Assembly: GCA_026713605.1 (NCBI GenBank)
Contig: JAPOOC010000007.1
Location: 59,418-123,417, forward strand
Length of the DNA: 64,000 nucleotides
Source: Candidatus Kaiserbacteria bacterium
GTDB lineage: Bacteria > Patescibacteriota > Minisyncoccia > Phycocordibacterales > JABAAK01
Direction: 5' to 3'
Shown here one piece after another: positions 9,822-58,209 of this stretch. How positions within the stretch are numbered: the stretch's first letter is position 1; every line of letters starts with the position of its first letter. The notes below the pieces were generated by a model. It was not told the DNA's origin. It saw only the letters and a program-made list of their open reading frames with translations, and did no database searches. A program made the translations under genes and the position numbers.

Positions 9822-9838
9822 TCCTCTATACTATATAT

Positions 9839-10705
9839 ATGAAAGATTACTACAAGATGCTCGGCGTTGAAAGAGGTGCATCCCAGGAAGATATTCAAAA
9901 GGCGTTCCGAAAACTGGCACACCAGTATCACCCTGACAAAAAAAGGGGAGACATAAACAAATTTAAAGAGGTGAATGAGGCGTATCAAGTATTGAGCAAT
10001 CAACAGAAGCGAGCGCAGTATGATGCAGGGGTTGACCCGCGAAGCGGGGGAACGGGCGGTTTTGACACCTCCGGTTTCCGTGGCTTTGAAGGATTTGATT
10101 TTGGAAATATGGAGTTTAATTTTGGCGGTGCTTCCGGTGGCTTTGCAGACGCTATTAATCAAATGTTCCGCGGTGCCATGAATCGAGGGGCGGATGTACA
10201 AATTGATATAACTATTTCATTTGAGGAGTCCGTATTCGGAACGGCAAAGAACATCACCATACCATACCGAAGAAAAGCGTCGGAGACGGTTGAGATACAG
10301 GTGCCGGCAGGGATAGAGCCAGGGTCACGGCTACAATATCCAGGGCGGGGAGAGCCATCAAAAGATGGACAGTCATCCCCGGGTGATTTATTCATACAGA
10401 TACGAGTGCAAAAGCATCCAACTTTCGAGCGTCGTGGTGGCGATATCGTCTGCCCACTTTCACTCACTCCGAGCGAAGCATTGCTCGGGGCAACCAAAGA
10501 AATACAGGACATCCGCGGCAACACCCTCGCGGTGACTGTTCCTGAAATGAGTAAAGAGGGTACCCATATTATTTTCCAAGGCCGAGGTATCCCTCGCCCT
10601 GCTGGCAATGACCGCCTCATAATATTCTGCCACATTGTCTACCCAAAAAAATTGAGTAAAAAGGCAAAAGAGATGCTCAAGGAGCTACAAAAAGAGGGAT
10701 TTTAG
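9839..10705 (+). CDS. dnaJ: J-domain co-chaperone (DnaJ/CbpA-like, no Zn-finger domain)
   Basis: J domain with HPD motif (YHPDKK), G/F-rich linker, C-terminal substrate-binding domains; CxxCxGxG repeats absent; 288 aa. Confidence 0.8.
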
Positions 10706-13622: not shown

Positions 13623-13634
13623 TATGTAATGTAA

Positions 13635-25849: not shown

Positions 25850-27520
25850 TTACGCCACCAGGTAAGGGACAATCTCGGTGGTGCCGAGGTGTTCCGCGGT
25901 CTGCCCGGGGGGCAGAATGCGGATGCGGGAGTTGAAGCCACGGTCGACTTCAAACTCCTCGGAGAGGGTCTTTCCGACTGGAATCGTCCGGAACAGAACC
26001 TCTTCCTCTTCGTCGTCTCTGATCTGGACGGCGAAGGTAATCTCCGTCTCCTGTGGCAGACGGAGAGAGATTGCATAGTAGGCGACCTCGTCATCCCCTC
26101 CGAGACGACGAGGTTCAAGGACGCAGCCGGACGCCCGTAAGGCATCCTTTACTGCATCCTGCAGCTCGCCGCATTGCGCAACAAGTGCTGATTTCTCAGC
26201 ATTCGCCGCCTCAAGGGCGACGCCGAGCTCGGTATTCTGCCGCTCAGCAGCGACGAGGGCGGAGAAGCGACGCTCAGCAGCAACCGCTTCAACTTCTGCT
26301 GATTCAGCGACTTTCGCCGCCTCATCAGCAGAAACTCTCGCCGCCACTTGTGCGGCCTCTGCCGCATCAAGATCTGCGGTCAAGGCAGAAACTTGCGTTT
26401 CTGCGTGCCGCAGGTCAGCAGCGAGGCGACCGATTGCAACATCGGCTTTCCGTGCCTCGCCGTTGAGGCGGCTGAGCCCTTCCGACGCCTCATCGTGTGC
26501 CGCCTCGGCATCAGAGAGGGCACTCGCAAGACCGTCGGCATCAAGAACCTTGACACCGTTTTCAATGGCCTTCGCTGCCGCTTCGGACGCCTGTTTCGCC
26601 TCAGCGAGAGCGGCCTCCGATGTAAGGGCGGCTTTCGCCGCCTCTTCAACGGCCTCCCAAGCGCTCTCAGCACCGCTGATAGCGTCTTGGTGGGCACCTT
26701 GTAGGTGCCCTTGTTCCGCCTCGGCGGTCTGCAGGGTACCCTGCAGAGCTACCACCTGCTGCTTTGCAGCAGCAAGGTTTGCCGTCGAAGCAGCAAGATC
26801 CGCCGCAGCAAGATCCGCCACCTTGCGCTCTTCAAAAGCGCTAAGGCGGACTTGCACGCCGGCAGCGTGCGCTTCCGCGCGCTCCGCATGCTCCCGCAGC
26901 GGAGTCGCGACGGCTTCTGCCGTCGCTTGTGCGGTCTCGGCAGCGTGCCGCGCTTCCACCGCTTCAGCGGCCGTTTTCTCGGCAACCGCCAAAGCATCGT
27001 TAGATGCTTGGAGGGCGCCTTCGATTTTGGCGATCTTGTCGTCTGTCACCTTGGCTTCCGCCTTAGCGGTTTCAACCGCCTCCTTGGCGACTTGAAGGTC
27101 CTTCTCCAGACCTTCAACGGTCGCCTCAGCGGCGTCAAGATCCTCTTCGGAGGACTCTAAGTCCTCCTCAAGACCCTTGATGTTCTCAAGGGTCTTGGGA
27201 TCCGGCGCCATGAGCTGCAACACCGGACCCACCATGGCTGCGATGATGAATACCACCGCTTCCATCTGGCCGAACACCAAAGAAGGTGTCCAGCCAAATC
27301 CGACAAATCCAGCCGCCAGAAGTAGGGCGAGCAGACCAAGGATCCCCCCTCCCATGCGGGGGAAAAACGAGTTTTCGTAACTCCGCACCATGATCAGTGC
27401 GGAACTTAGCAGCAGCAAAGCTGCTGCTGATACTGTCTGGGTTTCCGCATCAAGTGCGGAAAAGGCCACGACGGTCACCGCAGTGAGCATCAAGGCTGCG
27501 ATCGCAATCATTCTCTTCAT
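25850..27520 (-). CDS. Polytopic membrane-anchored, Ala/Glu-rich coiled-coil protein (unknown function)
   Basis: Start set at MKRMIAIAAL with strong SD AGGAGG (ORF track extends to 27646); ~4 TM segments, ~380 aa heptad-like Ala/Glu/Lys repeats, small C-terminal domain; locally much higher GC than neighbours. Confidence 0.65.
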   Translation of the reverse strand: MKRMIAIAALMLTAVTVVAFSALDAETQTVSAAALLLLSSALIMVRSYENSFFPRMGGGILGLLALLLAAGFVGFGWTPSLVFGQMEAVVFIIAAMVGPVLQLMAPDPKTLENIKGLEEDLESSEEDLDAAEATVEGLEKDLQVAKEAVETAKAEAKVTDDKIAKIEGALQASNDALAVAEKTAAEAVEARHAAETAQATAEAVATPLREHAERAEAHAAGVQVRLSAFEERKVADLAAADLAASTANLAAAKQQVVALQGTLQTAEAEQGHLQGAHQDAISGAESAWEAVEEAAKAALTSEAALAEAKQASEAAAKAIENGVKVLDADGLASALSDAEAAHDEASEGLSRLNGEARKADVAIGRLAADLRHAETQVSALTADLDAAEAAQVAARVSADEAAKVAESAEVEAVAAERRFSALVAAERQNTELGVALEAANAEKSALVAQCGELQDAVKDALRASGCVLEPRRLGGDDEVAYYAISLRLPQETEITFAVQIRDDEEEEVLFRTIPVGKTLSEEFEVDRGFNSRIRILPPGQTAEHLGTTEIVPYLVA

Positions 27521-27750
27521 TTCTTTTCCTCCTGGCAAGCACTCGCTTGCCATCTTTATGCCCTCTTCTCTTTGAGGAGGGCGAAGTTCTTTGTAATTTG
27601 TAATGTTCAAAGCGGGGGATATGCACAAAACCCCTACCTCCATCACAAATTATACATAATGATATAATATCATAAAACAGCAAAAAACGCAAGTTTCAAA
27701 GCCACCCCAAAAACAGCAAAAACACCTCTATCTTGAGGGGTTTTAAGTAC

Positions 27751-38299: not shown

Positions 38300-38742
38300 G
38301 TCAATAAAAAAGCGCACAATGGATTAGTATGCCCATGTGTGCGCTAAAAGAAGAATACCCCGACACAGTGTCGGGGTATTATGGTTGATCCAATTATAAT
38401 TTACTCTTTACTTCCCTGCACGATGGCTGGTCGATAGAAAGTGCGAGGTCAGTGGCGTTGGCGCGCCCTTCCTGATGCACTTAGCAAGGGAGTTTTTTTC
38501 AAATATAAAAATTCAATCACGGGAATAAGTGAGCCAGAGAACCATCACTTATTGATCACCTATGATCTAGGATCTGACGGGGAGCATGATCTTCTCCATC
38601 TGAGGATCTTTCGGTGCAAAGCCATGAGCACCTATTCAATCATCAGCAGACAGGAAAACCATCTCGGCATCAAATCCTGTGGTAGGGAGCAGGGTCCTGA
38701 AACGCAGGATTACCTCACGTCTCCCGACCACTGATAGCACTA
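38300..38742 (-). ncRNA. Candidate ~440-nt non-coding transcript defined by promoter and twin terminators
   Basis: Minus-strand promoter TTGACA (38772-38777) - 17 nt - TATAGT (38749-38754); two consecutive minus-strand intrinsic terminators at 38356-38383 and 38311-38343 (the latter followed by U6AUU); no ORF >20 aa on that strand; many internal hairpins. Confidence 0.4.
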
Positions 38743-39467: not shown

Positions 39468-39821
39468 ATGCTAATATTCTCGTACGGTACGGTTTTTGCA
39501 GACACAGCGAATGAAAGCTCTGCGTTGCAAGAGGTAAATAGGGTGCTGAACCTATTTGATAGTTTTTCTGTAGTGATAGAAGTGCTGATCGTCATAGTCA
39601 CAATCCTTGTTTTCTTGTACTTTTTCTGGGGTTTAGTAGAGTATATTCGCAAAAACGATGCGACACTTGAGGAGGCAAAAAAAAAGATTGCGTGGGGAGT
39701 GTTAGGGATATTTGTATTAGTGAGTATGTGGGGACTGATTTACTCCCTCCGCATCTCAGTGCTCGGCTCAAAAGACACCCCAGATCCAAATATAGAATTC
39801 CGAAAAGTAGAGTCGCTCTAA
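39468..39821 (+). CDS. VirB2/TrbC-like pilin paralog 4
   Basis: TM (LVFLYFFWGLVEYIR) - loop (KNDATLEEAKKK) - TM (IAWGVLGIFVLVSMWGLI); closest to paralog 3. Confidence 0.5.
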   Translation: MLIFSYGTVFADTANESSALQEVNRVLNLFDSFSVVIEVLIVIVTILVFLYFFWGLVEYIRKNDATLEEAKKKIAWGVLGIFVLVSMWGLIYSLRISVLGSKDTPDPNIEFRKVESL

Positions 39822-39850
39822 CCGCATAAAACCCGGTATACTAAACCTAT

Positions 39851-40156
39851 ATGCTCACATACGCCCTCTCAGCAAAAGAAATAGCCAACAACCTCTTTGA
39901 CCACATCGTCAACCCGCTAATGGCAGGCATGCTCTTCATCGCCATCCTCTTTTTCATCATCATCGCGGTAAAACTCATAGCTGGCGCAGAATCAACGGAA
40001 AGAAAAGACCTCTTCACCAAGCTCGGCTGGAGTATTGCTGGCATTTTCATCATCACCTCCGTCTGGACCATCATCGCTTTTGTCAGCAGGGTAGCAGAGT
40101 CAGACATCAAAACATCCCTATACCACTCCGCAGAAATCGCACCACAGTTGACATAA
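39851..40156 (+). CDS. VirB2/TrbC-like pilin paralog 5
   Basis: TM (MLFIAILFFIIIAVKLIAG) - loop (AESTERKDLFTK) - TM (LGWSIAGIFIITSVWTII); 101 aa. Confidence 0.5.
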   Translation: MLTYALSAKEIANNLFDHIVNPLMAGMLFIAILFFIIIAVKLIAGAESTERKDLFTKLGWSIAGIFIITSVWTIIAFVSRVAESDIKTSLYHSAEIAPQLT

Positions 40157-40229
40157 CCACTTTTTCTTGGTACACTCTATCCCAAGTTTGACCTTTTAGA
40201 ATTGAAACCGCGGGCCACAGCGCCCGCAT

Positions 40230-40739
40230 ATGGAGGAAAGAATGAAAAAGTTAATGAGAAACCTAGCCATGGCAGTAGTCATGGCAGCGGCGATACTCGC
40301 CGCTGGCTGCGGGACCACCACTGAGGTGGTAGAGGTCCCGGTAGAGATTACGACCTCTCCCACGGAAACGACGGAAGTTGTTGAGATCCCGAACAGGGAG
40401 CTCGACTTAAGCGTTACGGTCGACCAGGCCGTAACAATCACCGCCGCGACGGCGGTTGGCCTCCAGCACCACCAGGCCCCGGAGATCGGCAAAATCGACT
40501 CCCGGACCAAGCGTCCGGTGAAACTCACAGTGATCGGGTCGGACTCGCTTCACGCAAAATCCGATTCGCGCGTAATCGGAGCCCCCAAACACGGGTTCCG
40601 GATCGGCGAGGACACATTGGTCAACCTTGGCGACACGGACCGGGAAACCGATGTTCGCGTCAGGGCGAACTTTGACCACCAGTATTCTGGCGGGTCAAAG
40701 GTTATAGGAGCCCCCAAACCGGCGCTCAAAGTCGACTAA
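40230..40739 (+). CDS. Lipoprotein with internal duplicated module
   Basis: Lipobox AAGC after signal peptide; duplicated VIGAPK(H/P)(G/A)(F/L)(R/K)(I/V) C-terminal modules; GC-rich. Confidence 0.55.
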   Translation: MEERMKKLMRNLAMAVVMAAAILAAGCGTTTEVVEVPVEITTSPTETTEVVEIPNRELDLSVTVDQAVTITAATAVGLQHHQAPEIGKIDSRTKRPVKLTVIGSDSLHAKSDSRVIGAPKHGFRIGEDTLVNLGDTDRETDVRVRANFDHQYSGGSKVIGAPKPALKVD

Positions 40740-40762
40740 CCCTTTCCCCTTTCCCTATCGCT

Positions 40763-40812
40763 CTGAGAAAATGCATAGTTTTCTATGTTTTCTCAGGGCG
40801 ATTTTTTATTGC
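40763..40812 (+). terminator. Rho-independent terminator of lipoprotein gene
   Basis: Long hairpin CTGAGAAAATGCATAG-TTT-CTATGTTTTCTCAG then GGCGATTTTTTATT. Confidence 0.65.
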
Positions 40813-40869
40813 CCAAAATAAAAAATGGTACACAGGTTTCACTTGCATTGGGGTGATGCTTATAAAAAT

Positions 40870-40897
40870 TTGACAAATCATTTTTTTTGAGTATCAT
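40870..40897 (+). promoter_or_regulatory. Candidate promoter for 40929 gene
   Basis: TTGACA - 16 nt - TATCAT, then SD AGGAGA 9 nt before ATG. Confidence 0.45.
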
Positions 40898-40928
40898 AAC
40901 TGTTGGCTGGTCTTAGGAGAATACAAGA

Positions 40929-41792
40929 ATGACTTTTTTGAAGAGAATCGCAACTTTCGCCGCAACTTTCGCAGTCGTGCTCGCACTCACAGCTCCGACC
41001 TTCGCCGTTGATGGCGTGTCCTTTGGGACAACCGCCACCGAGGAAACCGCCGAGGCCGCTGAGGCCGCTCAGGCCGACGAGAAGTCGGGTAACGGCGTCA
41101 ACGACATTGACGTTGACTACAAATCAGAGATAAAATTCGAGGAAGGCGCCATTGGCACCTTCGAGGGTACCAAGGACGCTGCAAAAACCATCGCAGCGAT
41201 CAACGATCCTGCAATAAAGCGCTACGCCCTTCAGGGCATAGTGTACTCCCAAGGTCAGATGAGTGTAGAAAACGCCTACCGGGAACTCCAAGACGGAGAC
41301 CGGAAGGCGATCAATGCAGCGATCAGCTCCAACGACAAGATCGTTAGAGCGCTCACGATTGCAGCATCAGACGCAACTCTGCCGTTGGCGAAGGTGGATC
41401 GTATCCTTCAAAGTATTGAGGGATATGCGATGGCAAACACGTACCTGCTTGCCAAGTTAGGAACGACCAAGGTCGTTTCGAACGAAGGCGGCACCACCCC
41501 CAACCCCTTCAACGAGGGGAATGGACTTGACCTTGCGCATGTAATCGTGTTTGCAGGTCTCGTGATTCTCGCTTGGATCGCGGGAAACAGAGTCCTTGCA
41601 TGGGCGAAGGTCCAGAAGGAAAAGTTGGCTGCAAAGAAAAAAGCCAAAGAAGCCGAAGAAACCGCCGCGAAAGACGCGCTTCGCGAGAAGCGCGCCCGCG
41701 AAACCGGCGGCACCTCACGCAACCGCAACCGCAACCGCAACCGAAACCGCGGTGCGGAAGAAGCAGCCACCTCCGAGGTGGTAGAAGCTTAG
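40929..41792 (+). CDS. Secreted surface protein with C-terminal TM anchor and (Asn-Arg)n cytoplasmic tail
   Basis: Signal peptide ...APTFAVDG; C-terminal TM LAHVIVFAGLVILAWIAG; tail KKKAKEAEE...NRNRNRNRNRG. Confidence 0.55.
   Translation: MTFLKRIATFAATFAVVLALTAPTFAVDGVSFGTTATEETAEAAEAAQADEKSGNGVNDIDVDYKSEIKFEEGAIGTFEGTKDAAKTIAAINDPAIKRYALQGIVYSQGQMSVENAYRELQDGDRKAINAAISSNDKIVRALTIAASDATLPLAKVDRILQSIEGYAMANTYLLAKLGTTKVVSNEGGTTPNPFNEGNGLDLAHVIVFAGLVILAWIAGNRVLAWAKVQKEKLAAKKKAKEAEETAAKDALREKRARETGGTSRNRNRNRNRNRGAEEAATSEVVEA
41719..41748 (+). repeat. Hexanucleotide microsatellite (CAACCG)x4-5 inside the 40929 CDS
   Basis: caaccgcaaccgcaaccgcaaccgaaaccg encodes NRNRNRNRNR. Confidence 0.8.
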
Positions 41793-41835
41793 ATCTTTCA
41801 TCGGCACCTCCCTCCCAGAGGTTCGGTGCCACTAC

Positions 41836-41868
41836 ATGCCTCCTGCATTTGCAGGAGGCATTTTTTTA
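41836..41868 (+). terminator. Rho-independent terminator
   Basis: ATGCCTCCTGCA-TT-TGCAGGAGGCAT followed by T7. Confidence 0.8.
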
Positions 41869-42091
41869 TACACTAAAAAACCTTGAAACAAAAGGACATT
41901 TTGAATATACGGGCTATACGGGTACACTACCGACAGGGTGCCAGCAAAACAATTTGACAAAATCTACTTAAAATGGTATATTATAAAAAGAAATCGCTTT
42001 CTGTGCGATCCATATAAAATAATACTCATCGTTATTTTATATGGGTCGCGCACATAACGGCGACTCAATAGTTTACAATTCAAAAAAAAAA

Positions 42092-42132
42092 CTCCCGCAA
42101 CAGCGGGAATAAATTCCCGCTGTTGCGGGGGA
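42092..42132. promoter_or_regulatory. ~19-bp GC-rich perfect hairpin immediately 5' of the SD of gene 42142 (A10 upstream, so also a terminator-like structure when read on the minus strand)
   Basis: CTCCCGCAACAGCGGGAA-TAAA-TTCCCGCTGTTGCGGGGG, then GAGGAAGAAAAATG. Confidence 0.5.
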
Positions 42133-42141
42133 GGAAGAAAA

Positions 42142-43902
42142 ATGAAATTTTTTTTAATGATTGTTGGCGTGGCATTAGTAATTTCCCCGTTCGCCTTGAA
42201 GGCGTGGAACGGGGAAGAGGTTCCCATCCCCGGACTCAACGGCCTCATTGAGGCCATCCGCGACGACGCCACCGAGGCCGACGAAGCAACCGAAGAGGCC
42301 ACTAAAGCGGCCGAGAGAGAGGGAGAACTTTCCTTCTCCCGCATGATGCTGGAGCGGGATGTGAAGCGGATTTCGGCGTTTGAGAACGCCGACGGGTACT
42401 TGGTTACCCGCAGCGACGAGGAGTACAAAGACCTCGCCGCCGCCCTCTCTCGCTTCCGCCTCACCTCTGATAGTGCCAAGAAGGCACTTGATGAGGCGAG
42501 GGGGAAGAGGGGGTACCCCCTCTTTTTCTCCATCGCCCTCGGCGAGGCGGTGGAGGAAGAACCCTTCCTCCAAGTTGTCGGAACGGCGACGATCGAGTGG
42601 TGCAGGTCACGAGAAGAGGCCTATCCGCTCCCCAAAGGTGTGAATTGGTTTACGGTCGGGGCGAACCCGCTCGTGACCCGCGGAGAAATCGAAACTCCCT
42701 CGTTCAGAACAATGAGGGAATTCGTCGCGGCGGAAATCGCTCCCATCGTCGACTCTGCCGACGGTGAGGCGTTAGTCGCCGCCGCAATAGCGGGGAGAAA
42801 GGCGGACCTCGAATTTTTCGGAGTCCAAACGGCCCCCGGGATCATGTCTGCCAAGATTTGGCGGACATATAAAGGGGAAACGGAGGAGCGCATCCCCGCG
42901 GTGCGGTTCCTCCCGTTCATAGAGTCGCGTGCAATCAGCACGCATCCGGCCCATGCCGAGGTGAGGTACAAGTTCGCCGAGGCAATAGACCTCGACCCCG
43001 ACCGCCTCGAAGAGGCGTTGAAGGGGGTGGTCGAAAAGACCGATTCCCGCCGGGCACTCGTCACCTACTGGCCACACCGGCAGGAGCTGAGGGTAGAAGT
43101 GCCCTCAGCATTCACCGACGTGGTGATACGTGTACTCTCTCCAGAGTCCTTGTGGAGAGAGGCCTACAGGGTCGCTTCGGCGACCATGGGCGTTCAGGCG
43201 TCCATCCCTGATCTTGAATTGGAGATCTTAGAAGACCTTGGTCGATATCATGTCGATCAGGGTAAGAAGATCCACCACCACGAGGACTTCCCCGAGAGGT
43301 TTGTGTGTTTGACGCAGGAGAGTAAGTCAGGTGTTGAGGGTAAGATTATTTCTTACCGAGACGCCCAAACACTCCTCCCACGGGAGGGAATCTTGAACGC
43401 TGCCCAACTGCAGGCAGCAATCCAACGAGTGTTGGATCAAGATCCTGAGAGGTCACATTTCGAGTTTGGGTGCCTCCAAACGAGAGAAGAGATCATGGAT
43501 CTCTTCTCTCAGTATCAGTCGGGTTTTGAAAACCCAGCTGACGCATTCCCGTGCCATATGGGATATGACTACACGACGCGTCGTGTAATCATGTTCCAGC
43601 GGATTCAGCAGGACAGACCTGCTGAAACTGCGGACGCCGTCGGGGGAGAGAAACCCTTGGCGTCATACGGAGTAAAAAACTTCAGCGAAAAATCTCTCAA
43701 GGAATTGAGAGAAATGATCGCTGAAGAACACGGAATCACCCTCGCCATCGACGGAGGCGAGGCGAGGTCCTTGGCCTTGAGTATAATAAAGGCCAAAGGT
43801 CTCCCCGTCAAGATACGGGGAGACAAAATTGAGGGCGGTCACGCCCTCATCCATGTAATTTCCTCAAAGAAAATTAGCATGGATGTGGTTGCAGATGAGT
43901 AG
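42142..43902 (+). CDS. Large secreted protein of unknown function
   Basis: Signal peptide MKFFLMIVGVALVISPFALKA; 586 aa; GC-rich; no recognised family. Confidence 0.6.
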   Translation: MKFFLMIVGVALVISPFALKAWNGEEVPIPGLNGLIEAIRDDATEADEATEEATKAAEREGELSFSRMMLERDVKRISAFENADGYLVTRSDEEYKDLAAALSRFRLTSDSAKKALDEARGKRGYPLFFSIALGEAVEEEPFLQVVGTATIEWCRSREEAYPLPKGVNWFTVGANPLVTRGEIETPSFRTMREFVAAEIAPIVDSADGEALVAAAIAGRKADLEFFGVQTAPGIMSAKIWRTYKGETEERIPAVRFLPFIESRAISTHPAHAEVRYKFAEAIDLDPDRLEEALKGVVEKTDSRRALVTYWPHRQELRVEVPSAFTDVVIRVLSPESLWREAYRVASATMGVQASIPDLELEILEDLGRYHVDQGKKIHHHEDFPERFVCLTQESKSGVEGKIISYRDAQTLLPREGILNAAQLQAAIQRVLDQDPERSHFEFGCLQTREEIMDLFSQYQSGFENPADAFPCHMGYDYTTRRVIMFQRIQQDRPAETADAVGGEKPLASYGVKNFSEKSLKELREMIAEEHGITLAIDGGEARSLALSIIKAKGLPVKIRGDKIEGGHALIHVISSKKISMDVVADE

Positions 43903-44163
43903 TTTCGTCTGCAATCCCACGCCCAACAGAGCGTGAACAGAATCTGTTATAGTTTGAGGGGTTCTATTAAAAAAACTCCTTCTATCGCAAACTGATACCG
44001 TTTGCCTGATGAGTCCATGGTAGGACGAAATAGATACATTGACAATCTTGGAAGCAGCATAGTCCACATATCATGATAGTACTACGGTCATGGTATGTGG
44101 GCTATGGTGCCCAAAAAAAACGCCGCCGAGGGTTTCGGTGGCATGATCTGGTTGAAGTTACAC

Positions 44164-44185
44164 CCCGGCTCCGCCGGGAAAGGAG
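44164..44185 (+). promoter_or_regulatory. Conserved 5'-UTR hairpin + SD motif (copy 1)
   Basis: CCCGGCTCCGCCGGG hairpin then AAAGGAG, ATG 6 nt later; near-identical to 48436-48457. Confidence 0.5.
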
Positions 44186-44191
44186 CAAAAA

Positions 44192-44743
44192 ATGAAAGGT
44201 TTAATTTTCATCATCACGGCAGCTATGGCACTGCTCATGACCACGGTCGCCGACGCAGAGTCGGCAAGTAGCATCTCGGTCTGGCGGGTAGAACCACCCG
44301 CCAAGGAAAAAACCAGAAAAACATACACCGTCCCTGAGACGGATGTTAATATCACGATCGAAGACAAGATCGTGGTTGAAAGTGGGGGCGTGGTGCTTGA
44401 CGCACCACGCCCAAAGGACCCGAAAGAAATGATACGGGTGACCGCAGACCTTACGGCTGCGGTCATGCAGCGGGTCGCCGTCAAAGCGGAGACGCCTCCC
44501 AAGGAGGAAACATCCCCTAAAGAGGTCCCAGCTGAGAAGGTGGAACCGACACCCACGGCCCCGGCAACTCCAAAGGTAGACGCTCGCGATAGCAGCGTCT
44601 ACTATGCCGAGGGGAATGTCAATGTGCACAACAACAATGTGCACATTGGCGGCGGGAAAGGGAAGCGGAAGATAACCGTCCGTCGGCGGTACTTCCGAAC
44701 TGAACCCGCCGTCCGGGGGTTTGGCGCAGTCGGGCTGCGCTAA
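44192..44743 (+). CDS. Secreted protein of unknown function
   Basis: Signal peptide MKGLIFIITAAMALLMTTVADA; Pro/Glu/Thr-rich linker; 183 aa. Confidence 0.55.
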   Translation: MKGLIFIITAAMALLMTTVADAESASSISVWRVEPPAKEKTRKTYTVPETDVNITIEDKIVVESGGVVLDAPRPKDPKEMIRVTADLTAAVMQRVAVKAETPPKEETSPKEVPAEKVEPTPTAPATPKVDARDSSVYYAEGNVNVHNNNVHIGGGKGKRKITVRRRYFRTEPAVRGFGAVGLR

Positions 44744-44760
44744 CCCGCAAGGTCTTTGAT

Positions 44761-44799
44761 GGCACCGATTCAGCAATGAATCGGTGCCATTTATTTTTT
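44761..44799 (+). terminator. Rho-independent terminator
   Basis: 12-bp stem GGCACCGATTCA-GCAA-TGAATCGGTGCC then ATTTATTTTTT. Confidence 0.85.
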
Positions 44800-44819
44800 A
44801 AGGGTGTATCCCACAAAAA

Positions 44820-44848
44820 TTGCCAAAACAGGAGAAGTGGGGTATAAT
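44820..44848 (+). promoter_or_regulatory. Candidate promoter for 44885 gene
   Basis: TTGCCA - 17 nt - TATAAT. Confidence 0.5.
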
Positions 44849-44884
44849 ATAAAGTAAATTGATGTTTACGAAGGGGGGAAGGAA

Positions 44885-45481
44885 ATGAAGTTCCTTGCAC
44901 TGCTACTAGCAATCTCCTCGCTATCATTTGCCAGCGCAGAAGCAAACGATAGCGCGGTGTTTCTAACGCTACCTGGCTTTGAGGAAAAAGTCGGTGTGGC
45001 GTTTGACGCGAAAGAGGTAGAGATGGTCGCAGTGTACCGTGGTAACAATCTCTACCTCCGCCCACTCAGCAGGAAATTGCGACTGCTGCTGGGAAAAGAA
45101 AAGGCAGTCGCCACCAAAACCCTCTCTCTGCCAAACCTCATCAGGGATGAGGCGGCACGAGGGAAGGGGGAAACCCCCGCACTGCTGATCTCCGAGCGGG
45201 CATTTGGTAAGCCCGCCGACACCTTCCTTTTGCGTGTGAAAGGGAAGGTGATCAGTGGGAGGTTTCCCAAGGAAAAGGGTAACCAGTCCCAAGTAGGGGT
45301 GGCACTCTTCATGGGGAAGAAAGGGGTGCACCTCTACTGCCTCTACGTCTCAGAAGAAAGTGTAGAGGTTAACTTCCGCACACTCACCGAGCGGCAGTAC
45401 AAAGCTGCGAAGAAGAGTGTTGCGGAGAAGTTGAAGGCCGCCGGGCAGAAAAAGGCGGCAAAAAAGGTGGGTGACCTTTAG
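44885..45481 (+). CDS. Secreted protein of unknown function
   Basis: Signal peptide MKFLALLLAISSLSFASAEA; 198 aa; strong SD GGGGGGAAGGAAATG. Confidence 0.55.
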   Translation: MKFLALLLAISSLSFASAEANDSAVFLTLPGFEEKVGVAFDAKEVEMVAVYRGNNLYLRPLSRKLRLLLGKEKAVATKTLSLPNLIRDEAARGKGETPALLISERAFGKPADTFLLRVKGKVISGRFPKEKGNQSQVGVALFMGKKGVHLYCLYVSEESVEVNFRTLTERQYKAAKKSVAEKLKAAGQKKAAKKVGDL

Positions 45482-45485
45482 CACA

Positions 45486-45529
45486 AACAGCATACCGTTG
45501 TAAAACGGTGTGCTGTTTTTATTTTTCTG
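45486..45529 (+). terminator. Rho-independent terminator
   Basis: AACAGCATACCGTT-GTAA-AACGGTGTGCTGTT then TTTTATTTTT. Confidence 0.8.
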
Positions 45530-45550
45530 TGGCAAAATATCAGTAATCCA

Positions 45551-45624
45551 GGCGTGGTAGCCAAGTGGTAAGGCAGGGGTTTGCAAAACCTCTATACGCG
45601 GGTTCGATTCCCGCCCACGCCTCC
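45551..45624 (+). tRNA. tRNA-Cys (anticodon GCA)
   Basis: Acceptor GGCGTGG/CCACGCC, anticodon loop UUGCAAA, T-arm GCGGG-TTCGATT-CCCGC. Confidence 0.85.
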
Positions 45625-45634
45625 TGTGCATAAT

Positions 45635-45662
45635 TTGACTTTTCATGGTAGATTGATACACT
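45635..45662 (+). promoter_or_regulatory. Candidate promoter for 45669 gene
   Basis: TTGACT - 16 nt - TACACT immediately after tRNA-Cys. Confidence 0.4.
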
Positions 45663-45668
45663 AATTTT

Positions 45669-46292
45669 ATGGTTACCTATGCACAAGAGGTGGCAGAAAC
45701 GCTCGCCACATCAGGTGGGTCGGAGGGTTTATTTATCCTGAGTATCATAATAAACATCATCGCTTTGGCATTCGGATCTGGCAGATTGTTCAATGAAATA
45801 AAAAATACAAAATCTGAAGTTGCAAGCATGAGCGGGCGATTAGACAAGCAAGGAGAAAAGATAGATCGGGTGGCAGAAGGGCTTGCCGAAATCCGCGGAT
45901 CTTTTCTTGTGTTCAAAGAAGCGGTTGCCACACAGCAGTCAAGTCCGTTAACCTTAACAAAGCGGGGTGAAGAAATTTTACAGAAAAGTGGTGGCGATAC
46001 CATACTGAAAAACCTCTTTGAAGATCTGTACTCGCGATTTGAAGGAGTCACAAATGCGTATGATATACAGCGAAGGGCGAGGCAGGTGATCGAGGATTTG
46101 TTTGATGAAGGAGAAAAATTAGAGTTAGTGAAAAATTATCTGTATAACGAAAAAGAGAATCACAAAACGGTTGTGGATGTGTTGGGGATTGAGCTACGAG
46201 ATATGGTATTTGAACGACGAGGTATGCCGATAAAAAAACGGGAAAAAGAGCCAGAGCCATCCGTTGTGCGGGATGAGGTGCAGAGAGTATAG
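45669..46292 (+). CDS. Hypothetical single-pass membrane protein
   Basis: One TM (LFILSIIINIIALAF) then coiled-coil-like soluble region; 207 aa. Confidence 0.45.
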   Translation: MVTYAQEVAETLATSGGSEGLFILSIIINIIALAFGSGRLFNEIKNTKSEVASMSGRLDKQGEKIDRVAEGLAEIRGSFLVFKEAVATQQSSPLTLTKRGEEILQKSGGDTILKNLFEDLYSRFEGVTNAYDIQRRARQVIEDLFDEGEKLELVKNYLYNEKENHKTVVDVLGIELRDMVFERRGMPIKKREKEPEPSVVRDEVQRV

Positions 46293-46446
46293 GGGATTTG
46301 CACGACCTCAAATTTTTAACCTGACCATTGTTTATTGCTTGTCAAGAAGAGAGAAAACCACACGCCTTACAAGGATGTAGGATGAAATCGGGCGGTGCGA
46401 TTCCTTTTTGGGAAATGGATTGCGGTTGCGGTTGCTTTGGCACACC

Positions 46447-46746
46447 TCATGGCAAAATCTCCTTCGCAAGGGTAAAGCGAACGGTGGGGGCGATGCGGAG
46501 AGCGGTGTGCTTTTTAAGGTATTCGCGACAAACAGATTCTTTGCGCTTGAGGAACGCAAGTGCCTGTTCTTGCTGCTCCTTTGGAAAAACAGAGCAGTAG
46601 ACCGTAACGGTTGTTCCGGCTTTGTTGAGATCAATATACGATATCGTAATAAATGGCTCAGCGTTGGCATGTTCTCTGAGGAAATGCGCTATTGCCTGGT
46701 GCAGTATGGTATGCACCCTGCCGGTGCGAAACGGGTTCTTTTGCAT
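46447..46746 (-). CDS. rbfA: Ribosome-binding factor A
   Basis: Start trimmed to internal Met to abut infB; KH-like RbfA pattern (RVHTILHQAIAHFL...VTVYCSV...); conserved infB-rbfA order. Confidence 0.6.
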   Translation of the reverse strand: MQKNPFRTGRVHTILHQAIAHFLREHANAEPFITISYIDLNKAGTTVTVYCSVFPKEQQEQALAFLKRKESVCREYLKKHTALRIAPTVRFTLAKEILP

Positions 46747-53154: not shown

Positions 53155-53392
53155 ACAACCTCCATGGGATTACTCCCGCTGGTTCCTAAGACCAGTGCGT
53201 CTACCCGCGCCGGCAATCTCTGATTGACGCTGACTATCAGTCGCCGCCTGTGGCGGAATTGCTTGTGCCGAGGAGAGGGCTTGAACCTCCATGGGATTAC
53301 TCCCGCTGGTTCCTAAAACCAGTGCGTCTACCCGTGCCGGCAATCTCTGATTGACGCTGACTATCAGTCGCCACCTGTGGCGGAATTGCTTG
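53155..53392 (-). repeat. Two tandem ~126-bp units, each = 3' two-thirds of tRNA-Leu(UAG) fused to a palindrome-bearing spacer
   Basis: Units at 53155-53206(+spacer) and 53266-53332(+spacer) match the anticodon/variable/T-arm/3' acceptor of the adjacent full tRNA but lack the 5' acceptor and D-stem; 4 SNPs between units. Confidence 0.8.
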
Positions 53393-53478
<86 letters not shown>

Positions 53479-53479
53479 G

Positions 53480-53552
53480 TCCGCCCGCTAGGACTCGAAC
53501 CTAGGACCCACCGGTTAAGAGCCGGTTGCTCTACCAACTGAGCTACGGGCGG
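53480..53552 (-). tRNA. tRNA-Lys (anticodon CUU)
   Basis: RC: CCGCCCG-TA-GCTC-AGTTGGTA-GAGC-A-ACCGG-CTCTTAA-CCGGT-GGGTC-CTAGG-TTCGAGT-CCTAG-CGGGCGG-A. Confidence 0.85.
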
Positions 53553-53630
53553 AGGGAATCTTTTTCATTCTTGTGAATGATGTCTCCAGTATGCCACAAA
53601 ACCAATGTAAAATTGCTATACTACACTATA

Positions 53631-53711
53631 GCCGGAGTGGCGGAACTGGTATACGCGCACGACTTAAAATCGTGTACCTCTGGTATGCGGGTTCGACTCC
53701 CGCCTCCGGCA
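53631..53711 (+). tRNA. tRNA-Leu (anticodon UAA), long variable arm
   Basis: GCCGGAG-TG-GCG-GAACTGGTATA-CGC-G-CACGA-CTTAAAA-TCGTG-variable-GCGGG-TTCGACT-CCCGC-CTCCGGC-A. Confidence 0.85.
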
Positions 53712-53961
53712 CTTGTTAGTTCCGCCACCCGTGGCGTCTAGTATTCTGCACCAATCAGAGATTGGTGGCACGGGTATACGCGCACGACTTAAAATCGTGT
53801 ACCTCTGGTATGCGGGTTCGACCCCCGCCTCCGGCACTTGTTAGTTCCGCCACCCGTGGCGTCTAGTATTCTGCACCAATCAGAGATTGGTGGCACGGGT
53901 ATACGCGCACGACTTAAAATCGTGTACCTCTGGTATGCGGGTTCGACTCCCGCCTTCGGCA
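53712..53961 (+). repeat. Two tandem ~120-bp units, each = conserved spacer + 3' two-thirds of tRNA-Leu(UAA)
   Basis: Spacer CTTGTTAGTTCCGCCACCCGTGGCGTCTAGTATTCTGCACCAATCAGAGATTGGTG then GCACGGGTATACGCGCACGACTTAAAATCGTG...CCTCCGGCA; second unit carries an acceptor SNP (CCTTCGGCA). Confidence 0.8.
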
Positions 53962-54125
53962 CAGCAAAAAACACCACACCCCCACAAAATTACTTCATTA
54001 ACAGCATCGTTTTCCCACCACCACCCTTTTCTCCATCCCACACTTCGCAAGGTAACAAAGCGGGGGATCACCACCTGTCCTCACTAGAACTTAGGTATAA
54101 TTTTCAATGTTATACTTTAAATATC

Positions 54126-55364
54126 ATGTCAGTTACTCAAGTGGGTGTAAAAACAGATGGTCAGAGATTCCTCTTTGGCGATGTTTATCCTGATCTAAGT
54201 GTGAAACCAAAAAATATTGAAACAGAAGGTATAAAATATATTGGTTCAAAAAAAGAGATACTTCCTAAAATTTTGCTAATACTTGCATTATTAAGAAAGC
54301 AAACCAGCATCAAAACTATTTTAGACGGCTTTTCTGGTTCAACGAGAGTCACGCAAATGCTAGCAAAAAGTGGTTTTGATGTACTATCAAACGATACTGC
54401 CATTTACTCAAGAATCTTTGCAGAATGTTATTTAATGACAAAGAAAAATAAAGAATATTATGCCAAGAAAATTGAAAAGTTAAATGTTTTAGAAGGTAAG
54501 AGCGGCTGGTTTTCAAAACATTACGGAGGAACTGATAATGACGGGTTGTCAGTGGGGGATGATGGAAAGAAAAAGATGTGGCAATTACATAATACAAAAA
54601 AGCTTGATGCAGTACTAGAAGCCATACATGCAGAACAAGATGAGCAGGATAAAAATGTACTCCTCACCTCCCTAATTTTAGGACTTGATAAGGTTGACAG
54701 CTCTCTCGGGCATCAAGTTTCGTATCTTAAAGAGTGGGCAAAGAGGTCTTATAATGAGTTAGCGTTAAAAGTTCCCAATTATTTTATCAACAGCGGGAAT
54801 CATGCGGTTTATAATAAAGACATTTTTGAATTAATTAATGAAATTGACGTTGATGTGGCGTATTATGATCCGCCCTACTGTTCAAATAATGAAAAAATGC
54901 CAGCATCGCGTGTCAGATATAATTCTTATTACCATATATGGACATCAATTTGTTTAAATGATATTCCAGAAGTTTTTGGCGCATGTAACCGAAGATTAGA
55001 TACCAGTGATAAAACGGCGATATCAGTATTTGAAGAATTTAGAAAAGATACAGAAACAGATGATTATATCACCACCTTGAAAATAAAGGAATTGATACAA
55101 AAAACTAGTGCAAAGTTTATTATATTCTCATATTCAAGCAGTGGTCGTACAGATAAAAAAAGTTTTAAAAGAATATTAAATGAGTTGGGATTAAATTTTT
55201 TATTCTATGAATTTAATTACAAAAAAAATATTATGCACGCCTTAAAGTCCACCAATGAATGGGTAAATGAGCAGGGGAATAGGGAATACTTGATTGTCAT
55301 AGATAAATATGGAGTGCTTGACTTGGAAAAAGTAGAAAAAGGATTAACATCCACACCTCTTTAA
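54126..55364 (+). CDS. Dam-family (D12 class, alpha-type) N6-adenine DNA methyltransferase
   Basis: N-terminal IKYIGSKKEILPKIL (Dam motif X), motif I ILDGFSGSTRV, motif IV YYDPPY; AT-rich codon usage; start trimmed from ORF-track 53838, which runs into the tRNA repeat array. Confidence 0.8.
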   Translation: MSVTQVGVKTDGQRFLFGDVYPDLSVKPKNIETEGIKYIGSKKEILPKILLILALLRKQTSIKTILDGFSGSTRVTQMLAKSGFDVLSNDTAIYSRIFAECYLMTKKNKEYYAKKIEKLNVLEGKSGWFSKHYGGTDNDGLSVGDDGKKKMWQLHNTKKLDAVLEAIHAEQDEQDKNVLLTSLILGLDKVDSSLGHQVSYLKEWAKRSYNELALKVPNYFINSGNHAVYNKDIFELINEIDVDVAYYDPPYCSNNEKMPASRVRYNSYYHIWTSICLNDIPEVFGACNRRLDTSDKTAISVFEEFRKDTETDDYITTLKIKELIQKTSAKFIIFSYSSSGRTDKKSFKRILNELGLNFLFYEFNYKKNIMHALKSTNEWVNEQGNREYLIVIDKYGVLDLEKVEKGLTSTPL

Positions 55365-56129
55365 AAACCTTTTTAATTCTGACTCACCAAAAAGAGATAG
55401 TTCTTTTATGGCCAATAAAAATTTTTGGTTCACCTCATACTCTCCTTCAAAGAGTACATCCAAAATATCTTTCGCTTTATGTGTTTTTGTCCAGATACCT
55501 CTTTGTAATGCATTTGCTGTAGTTCCACCATATCTTGCTTCAAATATATAATTTCCTTTTGCATCCAAAAATTCATATATCGGATGCTTCCTTCTTCCGT
55601 TGGGATTAACTTTTTTAATTTTGCTCAACTTTCTTAACGCCGCATCCGTGTCAATAACGCACACCCTAAACCTGTTTTCCTTTTGATTATATAGAAAACA
55701 TAAAACATGTATGGCAAGAAGTTCCTTCAAAATAGGCAGAACAGATTTTTTATCCACCCGTTTCTTTTCCGCAGAAAGTTTTGATAATTTGTTAAACAAC
55801 CTATTTTCTTTATCCGTTCTTATCTGCAACGGACCATTGTCACCATAATTTTTAAGCGACAGGAAAAACTTCTTGCCAGACCTCTTCTCTTGTATCTCCA
55901 AATCCTCTTCACTTTCTTTTGCTCTGAATTTCTCTTTTCCTATATGTGTTGAATTAAATTTTGTTAAATATTTATTTATGTAATGGTCAAACAAAACTTC
56001 AGCCATGTCGCCGTGTGTCTTATTACCAAACTCCCTGAAAGAAAATATATTGTTAAAAAATGTATCACTTTTTGGATTTTCTCTGAAGTTTTTCTTTAAT
56101 TCTGTAAAAAAATTCATAAAATAAACCAC
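55344..56129 (-). CDS. Hypothetical protein convergent with and overlapping the MTase 3' end; candidate cognate type II restriction endonuclease
   Basis: 261 aa, Lys-rich, AT-rich; 21-bp 3' overlap with MTase; possible D...(D/E)xK-like segment (VIDTDAALRK) but not verified. Confidence 0.35.
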   Translation of the reverse strand: MVYFMNFFTELKKNFRENPKSDTFFNNIFSFREFGNKTHGDMAEVLFDHYINKYLTKFNSTHIGKEKFRAKESEEDLEIQEKRSGKKFFLSLKNYGDNGPLQIRTDKENRLFNKLSKLSAEKKRVDKKSVLPILKELLAIHVLCFLYNQKENRFRVCVIDTDAALRKLSKIKKVNPNGRRKHPIYEFLDAKGNYIFEARYGGTTANALQRGIWTKTHKAKDILDVLFEGEYEVNQKFLLAIKELSLFGESELKRFLKRCGC

Positions 56130-57237: not shown

Positions 57238-58209
57238 ATGAACAAAAGGAAGAGAGGCGGAAGGAGGGAAAGAGGCACCACCACCGCTCTCCGCATGCCA
57301 AATAGCGAGCGAAGGGTTCCAGTTGAAAACCCAGACAGGAACAAAAAGCAAAAGGAGGAGAAGCAGGATACCACCCGCAAGCAAGAGGAGTTAGGAGCAG
57401 AGGTATTTTTTGAAAAGCATGGGAGCAAAATATACATAAAGCCGCAAGGTTTTTTCAGGATACGAGAAAAGTGGGATGCTGCCCGCAAGGAATATGCAAA
57501 GGGAGGCAGGGAAGTGGAGCACCTCCTAAAGCAGTTTCCCAAGTGGGTAAGGAATATTCACAACCTCCCCGAAACGCTCAAGCCACTCATACAGAATGAA
57601 GAGAGCGACCATGAGGATTTTCTATACTTCCTGCAAAAACAAGGATTTATCAATCCCGAAAATATAGAGCAGTTTCTTGAGAAAGAGAGCGAGGAGGCAA
57701 AGCAGGAAGCATGCATAGAAAAAGAGTTGCAGGAAATGGAAAGAAAAAGGGCTGAGGAAGAAGAGAAGAAAGAGCGGGCGGAGATGCTGAAAAGAAAAAT
57801 TTTGGAAGAATTAACGGAAACATACTTTGTGCAACCAAAAGAAGTATATATAACCGAACACCCACCATACGCAAGCCCAAACATTGTTCGGATCGACAGG
57901 GATAAGTGGGGAAAAGAGATGCCTGAGTGGGGGAGGATACAGGACATCGCAACAACCACCAGATCTATATACACAGAAGCGGTCATTGTGGGGGATGCCG
58001 TGCATATCATGGACATCAACCAGTACGGCACAGGACTAGACGCAATAGATGCCTTCGCTGCCGACCATGAGGGAGGCAAGTTTGTCACTTTGCATTTCTA
58101 CGAAAAAGGGGAGACAGTACGAGAGACCCGTACCGCCACAAGATTCAAAGAAACGCACTCCTCTTTAATCATTCACGACCCAGAAGCACACATCAGTGGT
58201 AAGGAATGA
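57238..58209 (+). CDS. Hypothetical Lys/Glu-rich protein
   Basis: Basic N-terminus (KRKRGGRRERG), central coiled-coil-like KE-rich region; 323 aa; no family recognised. Confidence 0.45.
   Translation: MNKRKRGGRRERGTTTALRMPNSERRVPVENPDRNKKQKEEKQDTTRKQEELGAEVFFEKHGSKIYIKPQGFFRIREKWDAARKEYAKGGREVEHLLKQFPKWVRNIHNLPETLKPLIQNEESDHEDFLYFLQKQGFINPENIEQFLEKESEEAKQEACIEKELQEMERKRAEEEEKKERAEMLKRKILEELTETYFVQPKEVYITEHPPYASPNIVRIDRDKWGKEMPEWGRIQDIATTTRSIYTEAVIVGDAVHIMDINQYGTGLDAIDAFAADHEGGKFVTLHFYEKGETVRETRTATRFKETHSSLIIHDPEAHISGKE

Follow-up and report, generated by a model that had tools for sequence, protein, structure and literature searches.

Between positions 40200 and 45530 of the 64,000-nucleotide (nt) stretch of Candidatus Kaiserbacteria DNA analysed here (the window, to which all positions refer unless another contig is named), the plus strand carries five open reading frames (ORFs), designated genes A to E. 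The locus is probably a vertically inherited set of envelope-protein genes in which a conserved scaffold holds divergent alleles of the exported domains, and in which the transcript of genes C and D would be processed by a ribozyme lying between them. The predicted products are a lipoprotein (A), a type I membrane protein (B), a large exported protein (C), a further exported protein (D) and an exported basic protein (E), whose gene is more loosely attached to the set. The locus can be described in two layers. The first, the scaffold, would comprise the sigma-70-type promoters, the structured 5′ leaders, the signal peptides or anchors, the cytoplasmic tail of B and the terminators. The second would consist of the exported domains of A to D as deeply divergent alleles that are swapped between related lineages. 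These alleles may be maintained by selection for surface novelty, whether for host attachment specificity, for evasion of phages, predators or host defence, or for recognition of self and strain.

Members of the candidate phyla radiation (CPR), or Patescibacteria, attach to other cells, and the molecules that decide the choice of host or are recognised by phages and hosts are almost unknown. The best-supported view of the locus is that of a cell-surface module under selection for diversity. It appears so because the products bear export and anchoring signals, the parts predicted to be exposed are hypervariable, the cytoplasmic and regulatory parts are conserved, and the whole is co-inherited with a pilin array and an amidase gene. 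A role in host or episymbiont interaction is suggested by the export signals, the variability and the adjacency to the pilin array.

Divergence of the exported domains

Orthologues were assigned by tblastn in seven comparison genomes (L003 to L006, L008, L009 and L014), all of which are metagenome contigs. Across this clade, initiation factor IF-2 is 74–84% identical to that of the window in all seven relatives, and the pilins are 59–86% identical. The corresponding ranges are 27–62% for A, 19–56% for B, 24–60% for C, 21–29% for D and 46–71% for E.

The most informative comparison is that of L003 with L005, two long contigs from one sample. In the flanks, amino acid identity is 97% for IF-2, 98% for the solute-binding protein (SBP), and 98% and 99% for the fourth and fifth pilins, as against 54% for A, 60% for B, 53% for C, 68% for D and 83% for E. 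In a sliding nucleotide profile, identity stands at 97–100% up to the end of the fifth pilin gene and at 52–65% over A and the ectodomain of B. Within B, the ectodomain alone gives 55–61%, compared with 74–76% for the membrane segment and tail. The spacer between B and C is 91–93% identical, the body of C 48–73%, a 150-nt interval that includes the predicted ribozyme 99%, D 46–83%, and the sequence past D 95%. In the alignment, conservation extends over the promoters, leaders and start codons, and also over the lipobox region in A and, in C, the N-terminal anchor and a KAWNGE..P.PG motif. Divergence sets in within the mature exported part, with a sharp onset after the signal peptides.

The coding bodies of the pair differ by 35–52% at all codon positions and by many indels, on a background of 1–3%. 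Point mutation is insufficient to produce such a difference over such a background, which suggests old alleles brought onto a shared scaffold by recombination. The relationships of D are in keeping with this. D of L003, L004 and L005 is 40–42% identical to that of L008 and 25–31% identical to that of the window and L006, and for A to C the opposite holds; this incongruence fits a shuffling of alleles. It is most likely that the exported domains of A to D are deeply divergent alleles exchanged through homologous recombination anchored in the conserved segments. The proposal that these genes form a fast-evolving part of the surface or secretome, made in the original prediction from the window alone, is supported beyond what had been put forward, as the exported parts of A to D are hypervariable between genomes that are otherwise 97–99% identical. 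A difference of about 45% in exported domains between such strains marks the locus as a candidate determinant of specificity or evasion, and A to D could be used as a strain marker in metagenomes.

It could be argued that A to D simply diverge faster than their neighbours by point mutation, under weak constraint or positive selection. Identity does drop with distance (about 50–60% within the subclade, about 30% to L008 and L009, and about 25% to L014), and the proteins contain low-complexity stretches. Such a clock is nonetheless improbable, as it would have to alter the bodies at synonymous sites as well and fill them with indels, leave the intervening spacers 91–99% identical, and also give rise to the allele types of D that are incongruent with A to C.

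A dedicated diversification machine that rewrites the exported domains, be it a diversity-generating retroelement or gene conversion from silent cassettes, is very improbable. Diversity-generating retroelements are common in CPR bacteria, variability begins sharply after the signal peptides, and D-type and C-type paralogues exist elsewhere in the genomes of relatives. Against this, no template-like repeat of the variable segments occurs in the interval 39.8–46.5 kb and no reverse transcriptase is found among the scanned genes of the window, and the many indels and the replacement of whole domains of hundreds of codons are unlike the adenine-specific targets of retroelements.

The N-termini of streptococcal M proteins, pilE of Neisseria and the specificity groups of staphylococcal agr all belong to surface or specificity loci that are hypervariable between conserved flanks. 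The locus described here resembles them in that exported or exposed segments vary while signal peptides, anchors, cytoplasmic parts and regulatory DNA are kept. Sharp identity boundaries, neighbouring genes that vary together, and alleles that are incongruent with the core genome are further points of likeness. It differs from them in comprising four genes in a row, of unknown families and each regulated separately, all with a variable body, and in the uncultured, ultrasmall nature of the bacterium; silent cassettes, repeats or a recombinase were not seen here. A further difference is that its four protein families are unknown and its regulatory modules separately conserved.

Several points weigh against the reading of a conserved scaffold with exchanged alleles. 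Recombination is deduced from one informative pair of genomes and one incongruence, with no donor allele or breakpoint seen directly. The signal peptides were judged by hydropathy and conserved motifs. The reading also does not account for an excess of GC at synonymous positions in these genes, and the link to the pilins is one of adjacency, with no VirB4 found in the 64-kb window; both matters are taken up below. A more specific version of the proposal, which is rather doubtful in its entirety, would regard A to D as the modular specificity cassettes of an episymbiont. The exported domains of these four co-operating envelope proteins would be swapped between co-occurring strains, with the conserved structured spacers (the cassettes of promoter and leader, and the hammerhead) as anchors for recombination, the ribozyme would replace a terminator and promoter, and the products would act as host-contact or adhesin partners of the VirB2-like pilins.

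A predicted hammerhead ribozyme in the C–D spacer

The spacer between C and D measures 289 nt, is more conserved than the genes on either side and holds a predicted type III hammerhead ribozyme (43979–44036, plus strand; ...UUCUAUC|GCAAACUGAUACCGUUUGCCUGAUGAGUCCAUGGUAGGACGAAAUAGA...), identified through the full RF00008 model and through covariation. Stem III pairs 43980–43985 with 44030–44035 (UUCUAU with AUAGA(U)). Position 17 corresponds to C43986, and cleavage is predicted between 43986 and 43987. Stem I, with six pairs and a 7-nt loop, is formed by 43987–43992 and 44000–44005. The core consists of CUGAUGA at 44006–44012 and GAA at 44027–44029, and stem II pairs 44013–44016 with 44023–44026 (GUCC with GGAC) around a 6-nt loop. 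The motif agrees with the hammerhead consensus in the CUGAUGA and GAA segments, the A15.1–U16.1 pair, and a C or A at position 17 (A in L006), with a core that is invariant in five genomes. The core-adjacent pairs G43987–C44005, G44013–C44026 and A44030–U43985 are all present, as the acceptance rule of PMC3088659 requires.

The element occurs in the window and in L003 to L006. The 63-nt alignment of these five genomes has a mean column identity of 95%, compared with 25–60% for the neighbouring genes. Compensatory changes are found in two stems: a C–G pair alternates with U–A in stem I, a U–A pair with C–G in stem III, and the outermost pair of stem III (alignment columns 4 and 59) occurs as both C–G and U–A. 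Pairing is maintained in 98.4% of cells of the alignment, as against 23–42% when the partners are slid, and 13 of 500 shuffles reach the covariation score; stem II is invariant. RNAalifold recovers the three-way junction unprompted. The loops, UGAUACC and AUGGUA or AGGGUA, are almost invariant, which would fit a contact between loop I and loop II.

Outside these five genomes, the spacer is built differently. In L008 and L009 it is about 60 nt long and contains no hammerhead. In L014 it likewise contains none and carries an intrinsic terminator followed by a cassette of promoter and leader. The promoter and whole leader of L014, about 180 nt from TTGACA to ATG, are 100% identical before C (9830–10000 of that contig) and before D (11917–12087), which points to a recent duplication or gene conversion of the regulatory cassette. 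Traces of a similar cassette are visible in the window. A CCAYATA...TATRTGG hairpin matches twice, in the leaders of C and D, where 0.065 matches would be expected. In the leader of D, the cassette hairpin remains and the −10 region is gone, with the ribozyme located just upstream of the remnant TTGACA. The presence of a terminator and promoter at the position of the ribozyme in this relative makes a function of the hammerhead likely.

The regulatory signals of the window itself are consistent with this arrangement. No terminator was found after C (fold z-score −2.1), and no promoter-like site with correct spacing was found before D. The genes had been described as five monocistronic units, each with its own promoter and with four strong terminators at 40763, 41836, 44761 and 45486. 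The terminators stand (40757–40802, 41836–41861, 44758–44791 and 45485–45518, belonging to A, B, D and E), as do promoters for A, B, C and E; the C–D pair, with a hammerhead in its spacer, is where the description fails. In the subclade that includes the window, C and D would be co-transcribed from the promoter of C. The hammerhead would then cut the transcript after C43986, so that the C message would have the upstream hairpins at its end, and the D message would begin with a 5′-hydroxyl (5′-OH) group inside the ribozyme and retain the ancestral leader hairpins of D. The ribozyme would take the place of the terminator and promoter of the more distant relative. As a matter of speculation, cleavage could set the ratio of C to D expression via RNase J. 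In Bacillus, this enzyme acts on 5′-OH cleavage products.

There is a small probability that the hammerhead match is fortuitous or marks a relic without activity, with C and D expressed conventionally. The RF00008 match aligns the full model (1–54) with a score of 38.5 bits (E-value 7.7e-6 over 5.6 kb), below the Rfam gathering threshold of 48.5 bits, and a default Rfam scan missed the element for this reason. Stem III is short, with 5–6 AU-rich pairs, and the covariation derives from four distinct sequences. Folding of the single sequence yields an alternative of equal energy (−12.7 versus −12.8 kcal/mol), or drops stem III in a longer slice. In addition, the TTGACA at 44040 might serve a weak promoter of D. 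Against a relic stand the presence of all invariant core positions and core-adjacent pairs, the conservation across five genomes, the compensatory changes in two stems, and the substitution of C by A at position 17, which is an allowed one.

Judged from its sequence and predicted structure, the element is a new, previously unnoticed member of a well-known class (RF00008, clan CL00010; Perreault et al. 2011, PMC3088659) in an unusual setting. It shares with that class a junction open at stem III, the invariant core and the cleavage-site rule. It differs from the RF00008 hammerheads in scoring below the curated cut-off and in occupying a site taken up in a relative by a terminator and a promoter. 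For bacterial hammerheads, a role in dividing long transcripts into mRNAs of gene length has been proposed, and many of them lie near integrase genes that are often grouped with prophages (PMC3088659). The present element is on the same strand as the genes, like the bacterial and phage hammerheads of that study, and its intergenic position would fit the cutting of a polycistronic RNA. In contrast to them, it is a single copy rather than part of a cluster, and it lies in a conserved CPR chromosomal locus without prophage or integrase context. A self-cleaving ribozyme in a conserved chromosomal gene pair would make the idea of operon processing by hammerheads directly testable.

Scans for the exact core in species-representative genomes and metagenomes returned only the L003 chromosome and three unrelated hammerheads, which suggests that the variant is confined to this clade. 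A text search of the literature found no paper containing both “hammerhead ribozyme” and “candidate phyla radiation”, which is not proof of absence. A second CUGAUGA...GAAA match on the minus strand (38609–38646) was rejected, as it has no stem II starting at the core.

Chromosomal position, composition and pilin context

The locus is embedded among core genes, including those for a PilB-type ATPase, RuvB, PBP1, DnaK, two RNase J proteins, a sigma-70 factor, FtsZ, ribosomal protein S1, GyrA, IF-2 and ClpB. It follows directly on five PF18895-type VirB2-like pilin genes that are interrupted by the gene of a cell-wall amidase. The order gyrA, SBP, pilins, amidase, pilins, A, B, C, D, (tRNAs), E, tRNA-Cys, RbfA, IF-2 is found in L003 to L006, L008, L009 and L014/L015, and every contig with a homologue of C shows the same neighbourhood. 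In the five genomes compared for this distance, A starts 73–140 nt past the last pilin gene. The tRNA-Cys gene follows E in every genome in which the region can be seen, and the adjacency is taken to be ancestral on this ground. A tRNA-Leu/Lys/Leu cluster separates D from E in all relatives in which that interval is visible and is found at 53.4–54.0 kb in the window. On this comparison, it is most likely that the block has been passed on vertically and keeps a fixed place on the chromosome in a clade of Candidatus Kaiserbacteria.

The composition of the block is atypical, as first noticed in the window. The region 40200–45530 has a GC content of 0.533, which ties with the highest value (0.534) among the 5.3-kb stretches of the window (mean 0.471, standard deviation 0.027; 0.2% reach the value of the block). 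Most of the excess lies at third codon positions, where GC content (GC3) is 0.63–0.70 in the block genes versus about 0.42–0.51 in housekeeping genes. All 18 amino acids tested are shifted toward codons ending in G or C. The spacers within the block (1.1 kb) have a GC content of 0.417, close to the 0.404 of spacers elsewhere. The excess spans the codons of signal peptides and tails as well as the mature parts, and a bias tied to the variable parts only was rejected for that reason. It is smaller for A to D in L003, L004, L005 and L008, partial in L014, and absent from L006 and L009. The GC excess is thus synonymous, and it is neither a regional shift in base composition nor a sign of recent import.

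One explanation of the codon bias, itself compatible with the scaffold-and-allele reading, is that the products are S-layer-like major envelope proteins that are highly expressed and subject to translational selection. Near-consensus promoters, the long structured leaders of C and D, and the strong terminators would all suit such a role, and known S-layer genes have long stabilising leaders. NNC is favoured over NNU for Phe, Ile, Asn, Asp and Tyr, and GC3 is also raised in three pilin genes. This explanation is somewhat unlikely. The genes for DnaK (GC3 0.43), S1 (0.47) and FtsZ (0.44) do not share the bias, and a tie between the excess and expression level was rejected on this basis. Translational selection is also expected to be weak in slow-growing organisms with reduced genomes, and the proteins show no similarity to any S-layer family or fold.

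Alternatively, an ancestor of the clade may have taken the cluster from a GC-richer donor, with vertical descent since and the codon bias as a remnant. The excess in A to D of L003, L004, L005, L008 and, in part, L014 could be read in this way, as could the tiny size of the C family, which comprises seven representative clusters. Such an ancient acquisition is unlikely. A foreign codon signature should fade at this degree of divergence (down to 24% for C), and the excess is not uniform, being largest in the genome of the window. It also leaves unexplained the 53% identity of A–C amid surroundings that are 97–99% identical.

That the five genes form a recently acquired island integrated beside tRNA-Cys, as the original prediction had considered, is hardly credible. 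Atypical composition, an adjoining tRNA gene and products of unknown family are features shared with tRNA-linked genomic islands. Here, the block does abut the 5′ side of tRNA-Cys as described, which is itself a difference from such islands. The genes occupy the same site, in the same order and with the same flanks, in seven other genomes, and the promoters and leaders are common to these relatives. No repeat of the tRNA-Cys 3′ end resembling an attachment (att) site occurs in 39800–46500, in agreement with what had been noted at the outset, and no integrase, transposase or phage family was detected in genes A to E or in the following gene, F. The spacers are of native composition, and the departure is limited to synonymous codon positions. 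Conserved synteny thus speaks against acquisition as the original prediction had said it would, and the typical composition expected alongside it is not seen, the GC3 excess being real. The case is a caution for genome scanning, as a deviation in GC3 and an adjoining tRNA gene mimicked an island, and genome-specific DNA lies elsewhere in the window.

Such DNA comprises gene F and a restriction-modification pair. Gene F (45669–46292, plus strand, 207 amino acids (aa)) lies directly 3′ of tRNA-Cys and encodes one membrane segment and a coiled coil, with an ordinary GC3 of 0.43. It is the only gene here without an orthologue in the seven related genomes, in which the gap from tRNA-Cys to rbfA is about 200 nt; searches at this gene for an att repeat and for defence or phage families were negative. 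At 53838–56129, a type II DNA methyltransferase gene (D12 class) and a convergent type II restriction enzyme gene, both of low GC content (0.32–0.36), lie between the tRNA-Leu copies and tRNA-Tyr. The pair is absent from this site in L008, L009 and L014. Of all the DNA in the window, it is the genuine candidate for recent acquisition.

In Patescibacteria, VirB2-like pilin arrays are widespread and sometimes contain non-pilin genes as interruptions; one array is reported to be essential for epibiotic growth, and the same survey detected no classical adhesins (PMC12102498). VirB2 paralogues within one array are highly variable (PMC12102498; Microb Genom 2025). The block resembles these systems (PF18895/PF04956) in adjoining a five-gene PF18895-type array with an amidase, and the genetic linkage of A to E to the pilin genes is apparent from their conserved adjacency. 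It differs from them in that A to E are not pilins and match no component model of a type IV secretion system (T4SS). Searches for sequence or fold similarity of A to E to VirB1–11, Prg/Trs proteins and adhesins were negative. A further difference is that the pilins of L003 and L005 are 98–99% identical, the hypervariable part being A to D and not the array. A VirD4/TrwB-like coupling ATPase of 880 aa is encoded at 58448–61090 (plus strand).

Genes, regulatory sites and neighbouring features

ORF calls and hydropathy bear out the earlier description of five plus-strand genes with export signals. Each of the five proteins has one N-terminal hydrophobic segment. Sigma-70-like sites matching 10–11 of 12 consensus positions were located just upstream of A, B, C and E; the scan returned 21 sites in all, against 11.8 ± 3.7 expected. 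The terminators of A, B, D and E each consist of a hairpin and a U-run, with fold z-scores of −5.8 to −8.4.

Gene A (40230–40739, plus strand, as are all features of the block) encodes a predicted lipoprotein of 169 aa with a hydrophobic N-terminus. Its promoter-like site (40148–40176, TTGACA-17-TACACT, TG-extended) is almost the same in L003 and L005. Both the signal peptide and the lipobox (..AGC|GT) are kept, the lipobox cysteine being invariant across orthologues, and the mature part is hypervariable. The label of repeat lipoprotein given to it earlier does not hold, as the repeat amounts to one duplicated VIGAPK motif. The terminator of A (40757–40802) folds with −27.1 kcal/mol and a z-score of −8.4, and is followed by a U-run.

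Gene B (40929–41792, 287 aa) is preceded by the promoter-like site TTGACA-16-TATCAT at 40870–40897. Its product would begin with a signal peptide, continue as a variable ectodomain, cross the membrane at residues 199–224 and finish in a basic cytoplasmic tail with a conserved RNRNRNR run. Its identification as an anchored surface protein with an NR-repeat tail agrees with this second, C-terminal membrane segment and with the conserved run. The GCAACCGCAACCGCAA repeat that encodes the RNRNRN tail (41719–41746) has a perfect 16-nt inverted copy at 46420–46435, just past the stop codon of rbfA, which may be due to chance. In the stem of the B terminator (41836–41861), a hairpin and U-run also recognised by its fold z-score, pairing is preserved via double changes in relatives.

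Gene C (42142–43902, 586 aa) has a promoter at 41954–41982 (TTGACA-17-TATATT, TG-extended) that is conserved in all aligned relatives. Its leader of about 150 nt contains a long conserved hairpin (41995–42059, with the core CCATATAAAATAAT...ATTATTTTATATGG) that shows compensatory changes at three pairs. A GC-rich hairpin conserved in relatives (42094–42129) lies directly 5′ of the Shine–Dalgarno sequence; a first scan had called it a minus-strand terminator. Behind an N-terminal anchor or signal come the conserved KAWNGE..P.PG motif and then a number of small alpha/beta domains; the body is hypervariable. The acidic flank after the N-terminal segment would place the bulk of C outside the cell by the positive-inside rule.

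Gene D (44192–44743, 183 aa), predicted to encode an exported protein, is the most variable of the five and has kept only the signal peptide and a C-terminal motif, RR..P-A-x-R-G-F-G-A-x-G. Its leader hairpin (44064–44100, CCACATA..TATGTGG) is homologous to that of the C leader, and a GC hairpin (44163–44178), conserved in relatives, lies directly 5′ of its Shine–Dalgarno sequence. A similar short GC-rich hairpin occurs in this position at A (40209–40228), and none is present at B or E. The terminator of D, a hairpin and U-run, lies at 44758–44791. Gene E (44885–45481, 198 aa), behind the promoter-like site TTGCCA-17-TATAAT (44820–44848), is predicted to encode an exported basic protein. It has an invariant Lys/Ala-rich C-terminal tail and is better conserved than A to D. 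Its terminator, of the same make-up, is at 45485–45518, and tRNA-Cys(GCA), on the plus strand at 45551–45624, is its right-hand neighbour.

The absence of a recognised family was upheld, as searches of A to F against Pfam, NCBIfam, PHROG and PADLOC gave only signal-peptide-level or sub-threshold noise. Sequence profiles of the Protein Data Bank (PDB) returned nothing for all five families. C is 100% identical over 99% of its length to MCY4577150.1 of NCBI (581 aa, “hypothetical protein”). A search of 5.8 billion proteins gave six matches to it, and seven representative clusters were found among 1.84 billion proteins. The structure prediction that had been suggested for this protein yielded an AlphaFold model from 12 sequences (mean pLDDT 79, pTM 0.47) that comprises a helix at the N-terminus, an acidic linker that is disordered, and several small alpha/beta domains; no fold relative of C was found. 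Cys444 and Cys471 are invariant in all 12 sequences and would fit a disulfide bond in the exported protein.

In P0022, P0024 and a 323-aa paralogue of L003 (18805–19776 of that contig; also in L004 and L005), a D-type module is fused to a C-terminal module of C of about 80 residues. These paralogues are made up of the D-type module (LLEKYPVNxxx...PAIRGF[GK]A[LV]G; e.g., LLEKYPVNKSR) and one or two C-terminal C modules. C and D appear to be functionally tied, given this fusion of their modules. No such fusion paralogue is present in the 64-kb window; the 323-aa gene at 57238–58209 was rejected as a counterpart, having no similarity to that of L003.

A minus-strand gene for an unclassified, structured RNA of about 386 nt (38731 to 38346) occupies the 650-nt gap between the amidase gene and the third pilin gene. 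Its promoter (TTGACA-17-TATAGT, 38767–38739) is invariant in seven genomes and its terminator lies at 38380–38354. No ORF of at least 50 aa occurs on the minus strand, and the conserved blocks contain 1-nt indels. RNAalifold predicts 74 pairs, 35 of them with compensatory double changes (covariation term −7.8), and no Rfam family matched at an E-value of 1 or below. A conserved unpaired stretch, AACCGACCAACCAUCGU, is found near the 3′ end; when targets able to pair with the conserved CA-rich stretch were sought, none rose above chance.

Elsewhere in the window, the minus strand carries two adjacent RNase J paralogues (11700–15416), the second without a metallo-beta-lactamase domain match. Also on the minus strand, at 25850–27646, lies the gene of highest GC content in the window (0.594); its product is a coiled-coil protein of 598 aa, rich in Ala and Glu and anchored in the membrane, with no family match. 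The tRNA-Leu(taa)/Lys/Leu(tag) cluster stands after clpB in the window (53392–53712). In L003 (12936–13676) it is inverted relative to L005 (12949–13351), which suggests recombination between oppositely oriented tRNA-Leu genes. Tandem arrays of 2–5 tRNA-Leu-like units, about 125 nt apart, flank tRNA-Lys in the window (53631–53962), in L008 (8293–8877 and 9116–9717) and in L014 (12756–12969 and 13162–13621). Units beyond the first are probably degenerate, as ARAGORN calls all of them and the Rfam tRNA model accepts the first of each array in the window and L008, where it was applied. A large ORF (53838–55364) begins inside the tRNA-Leu-like array of the window.

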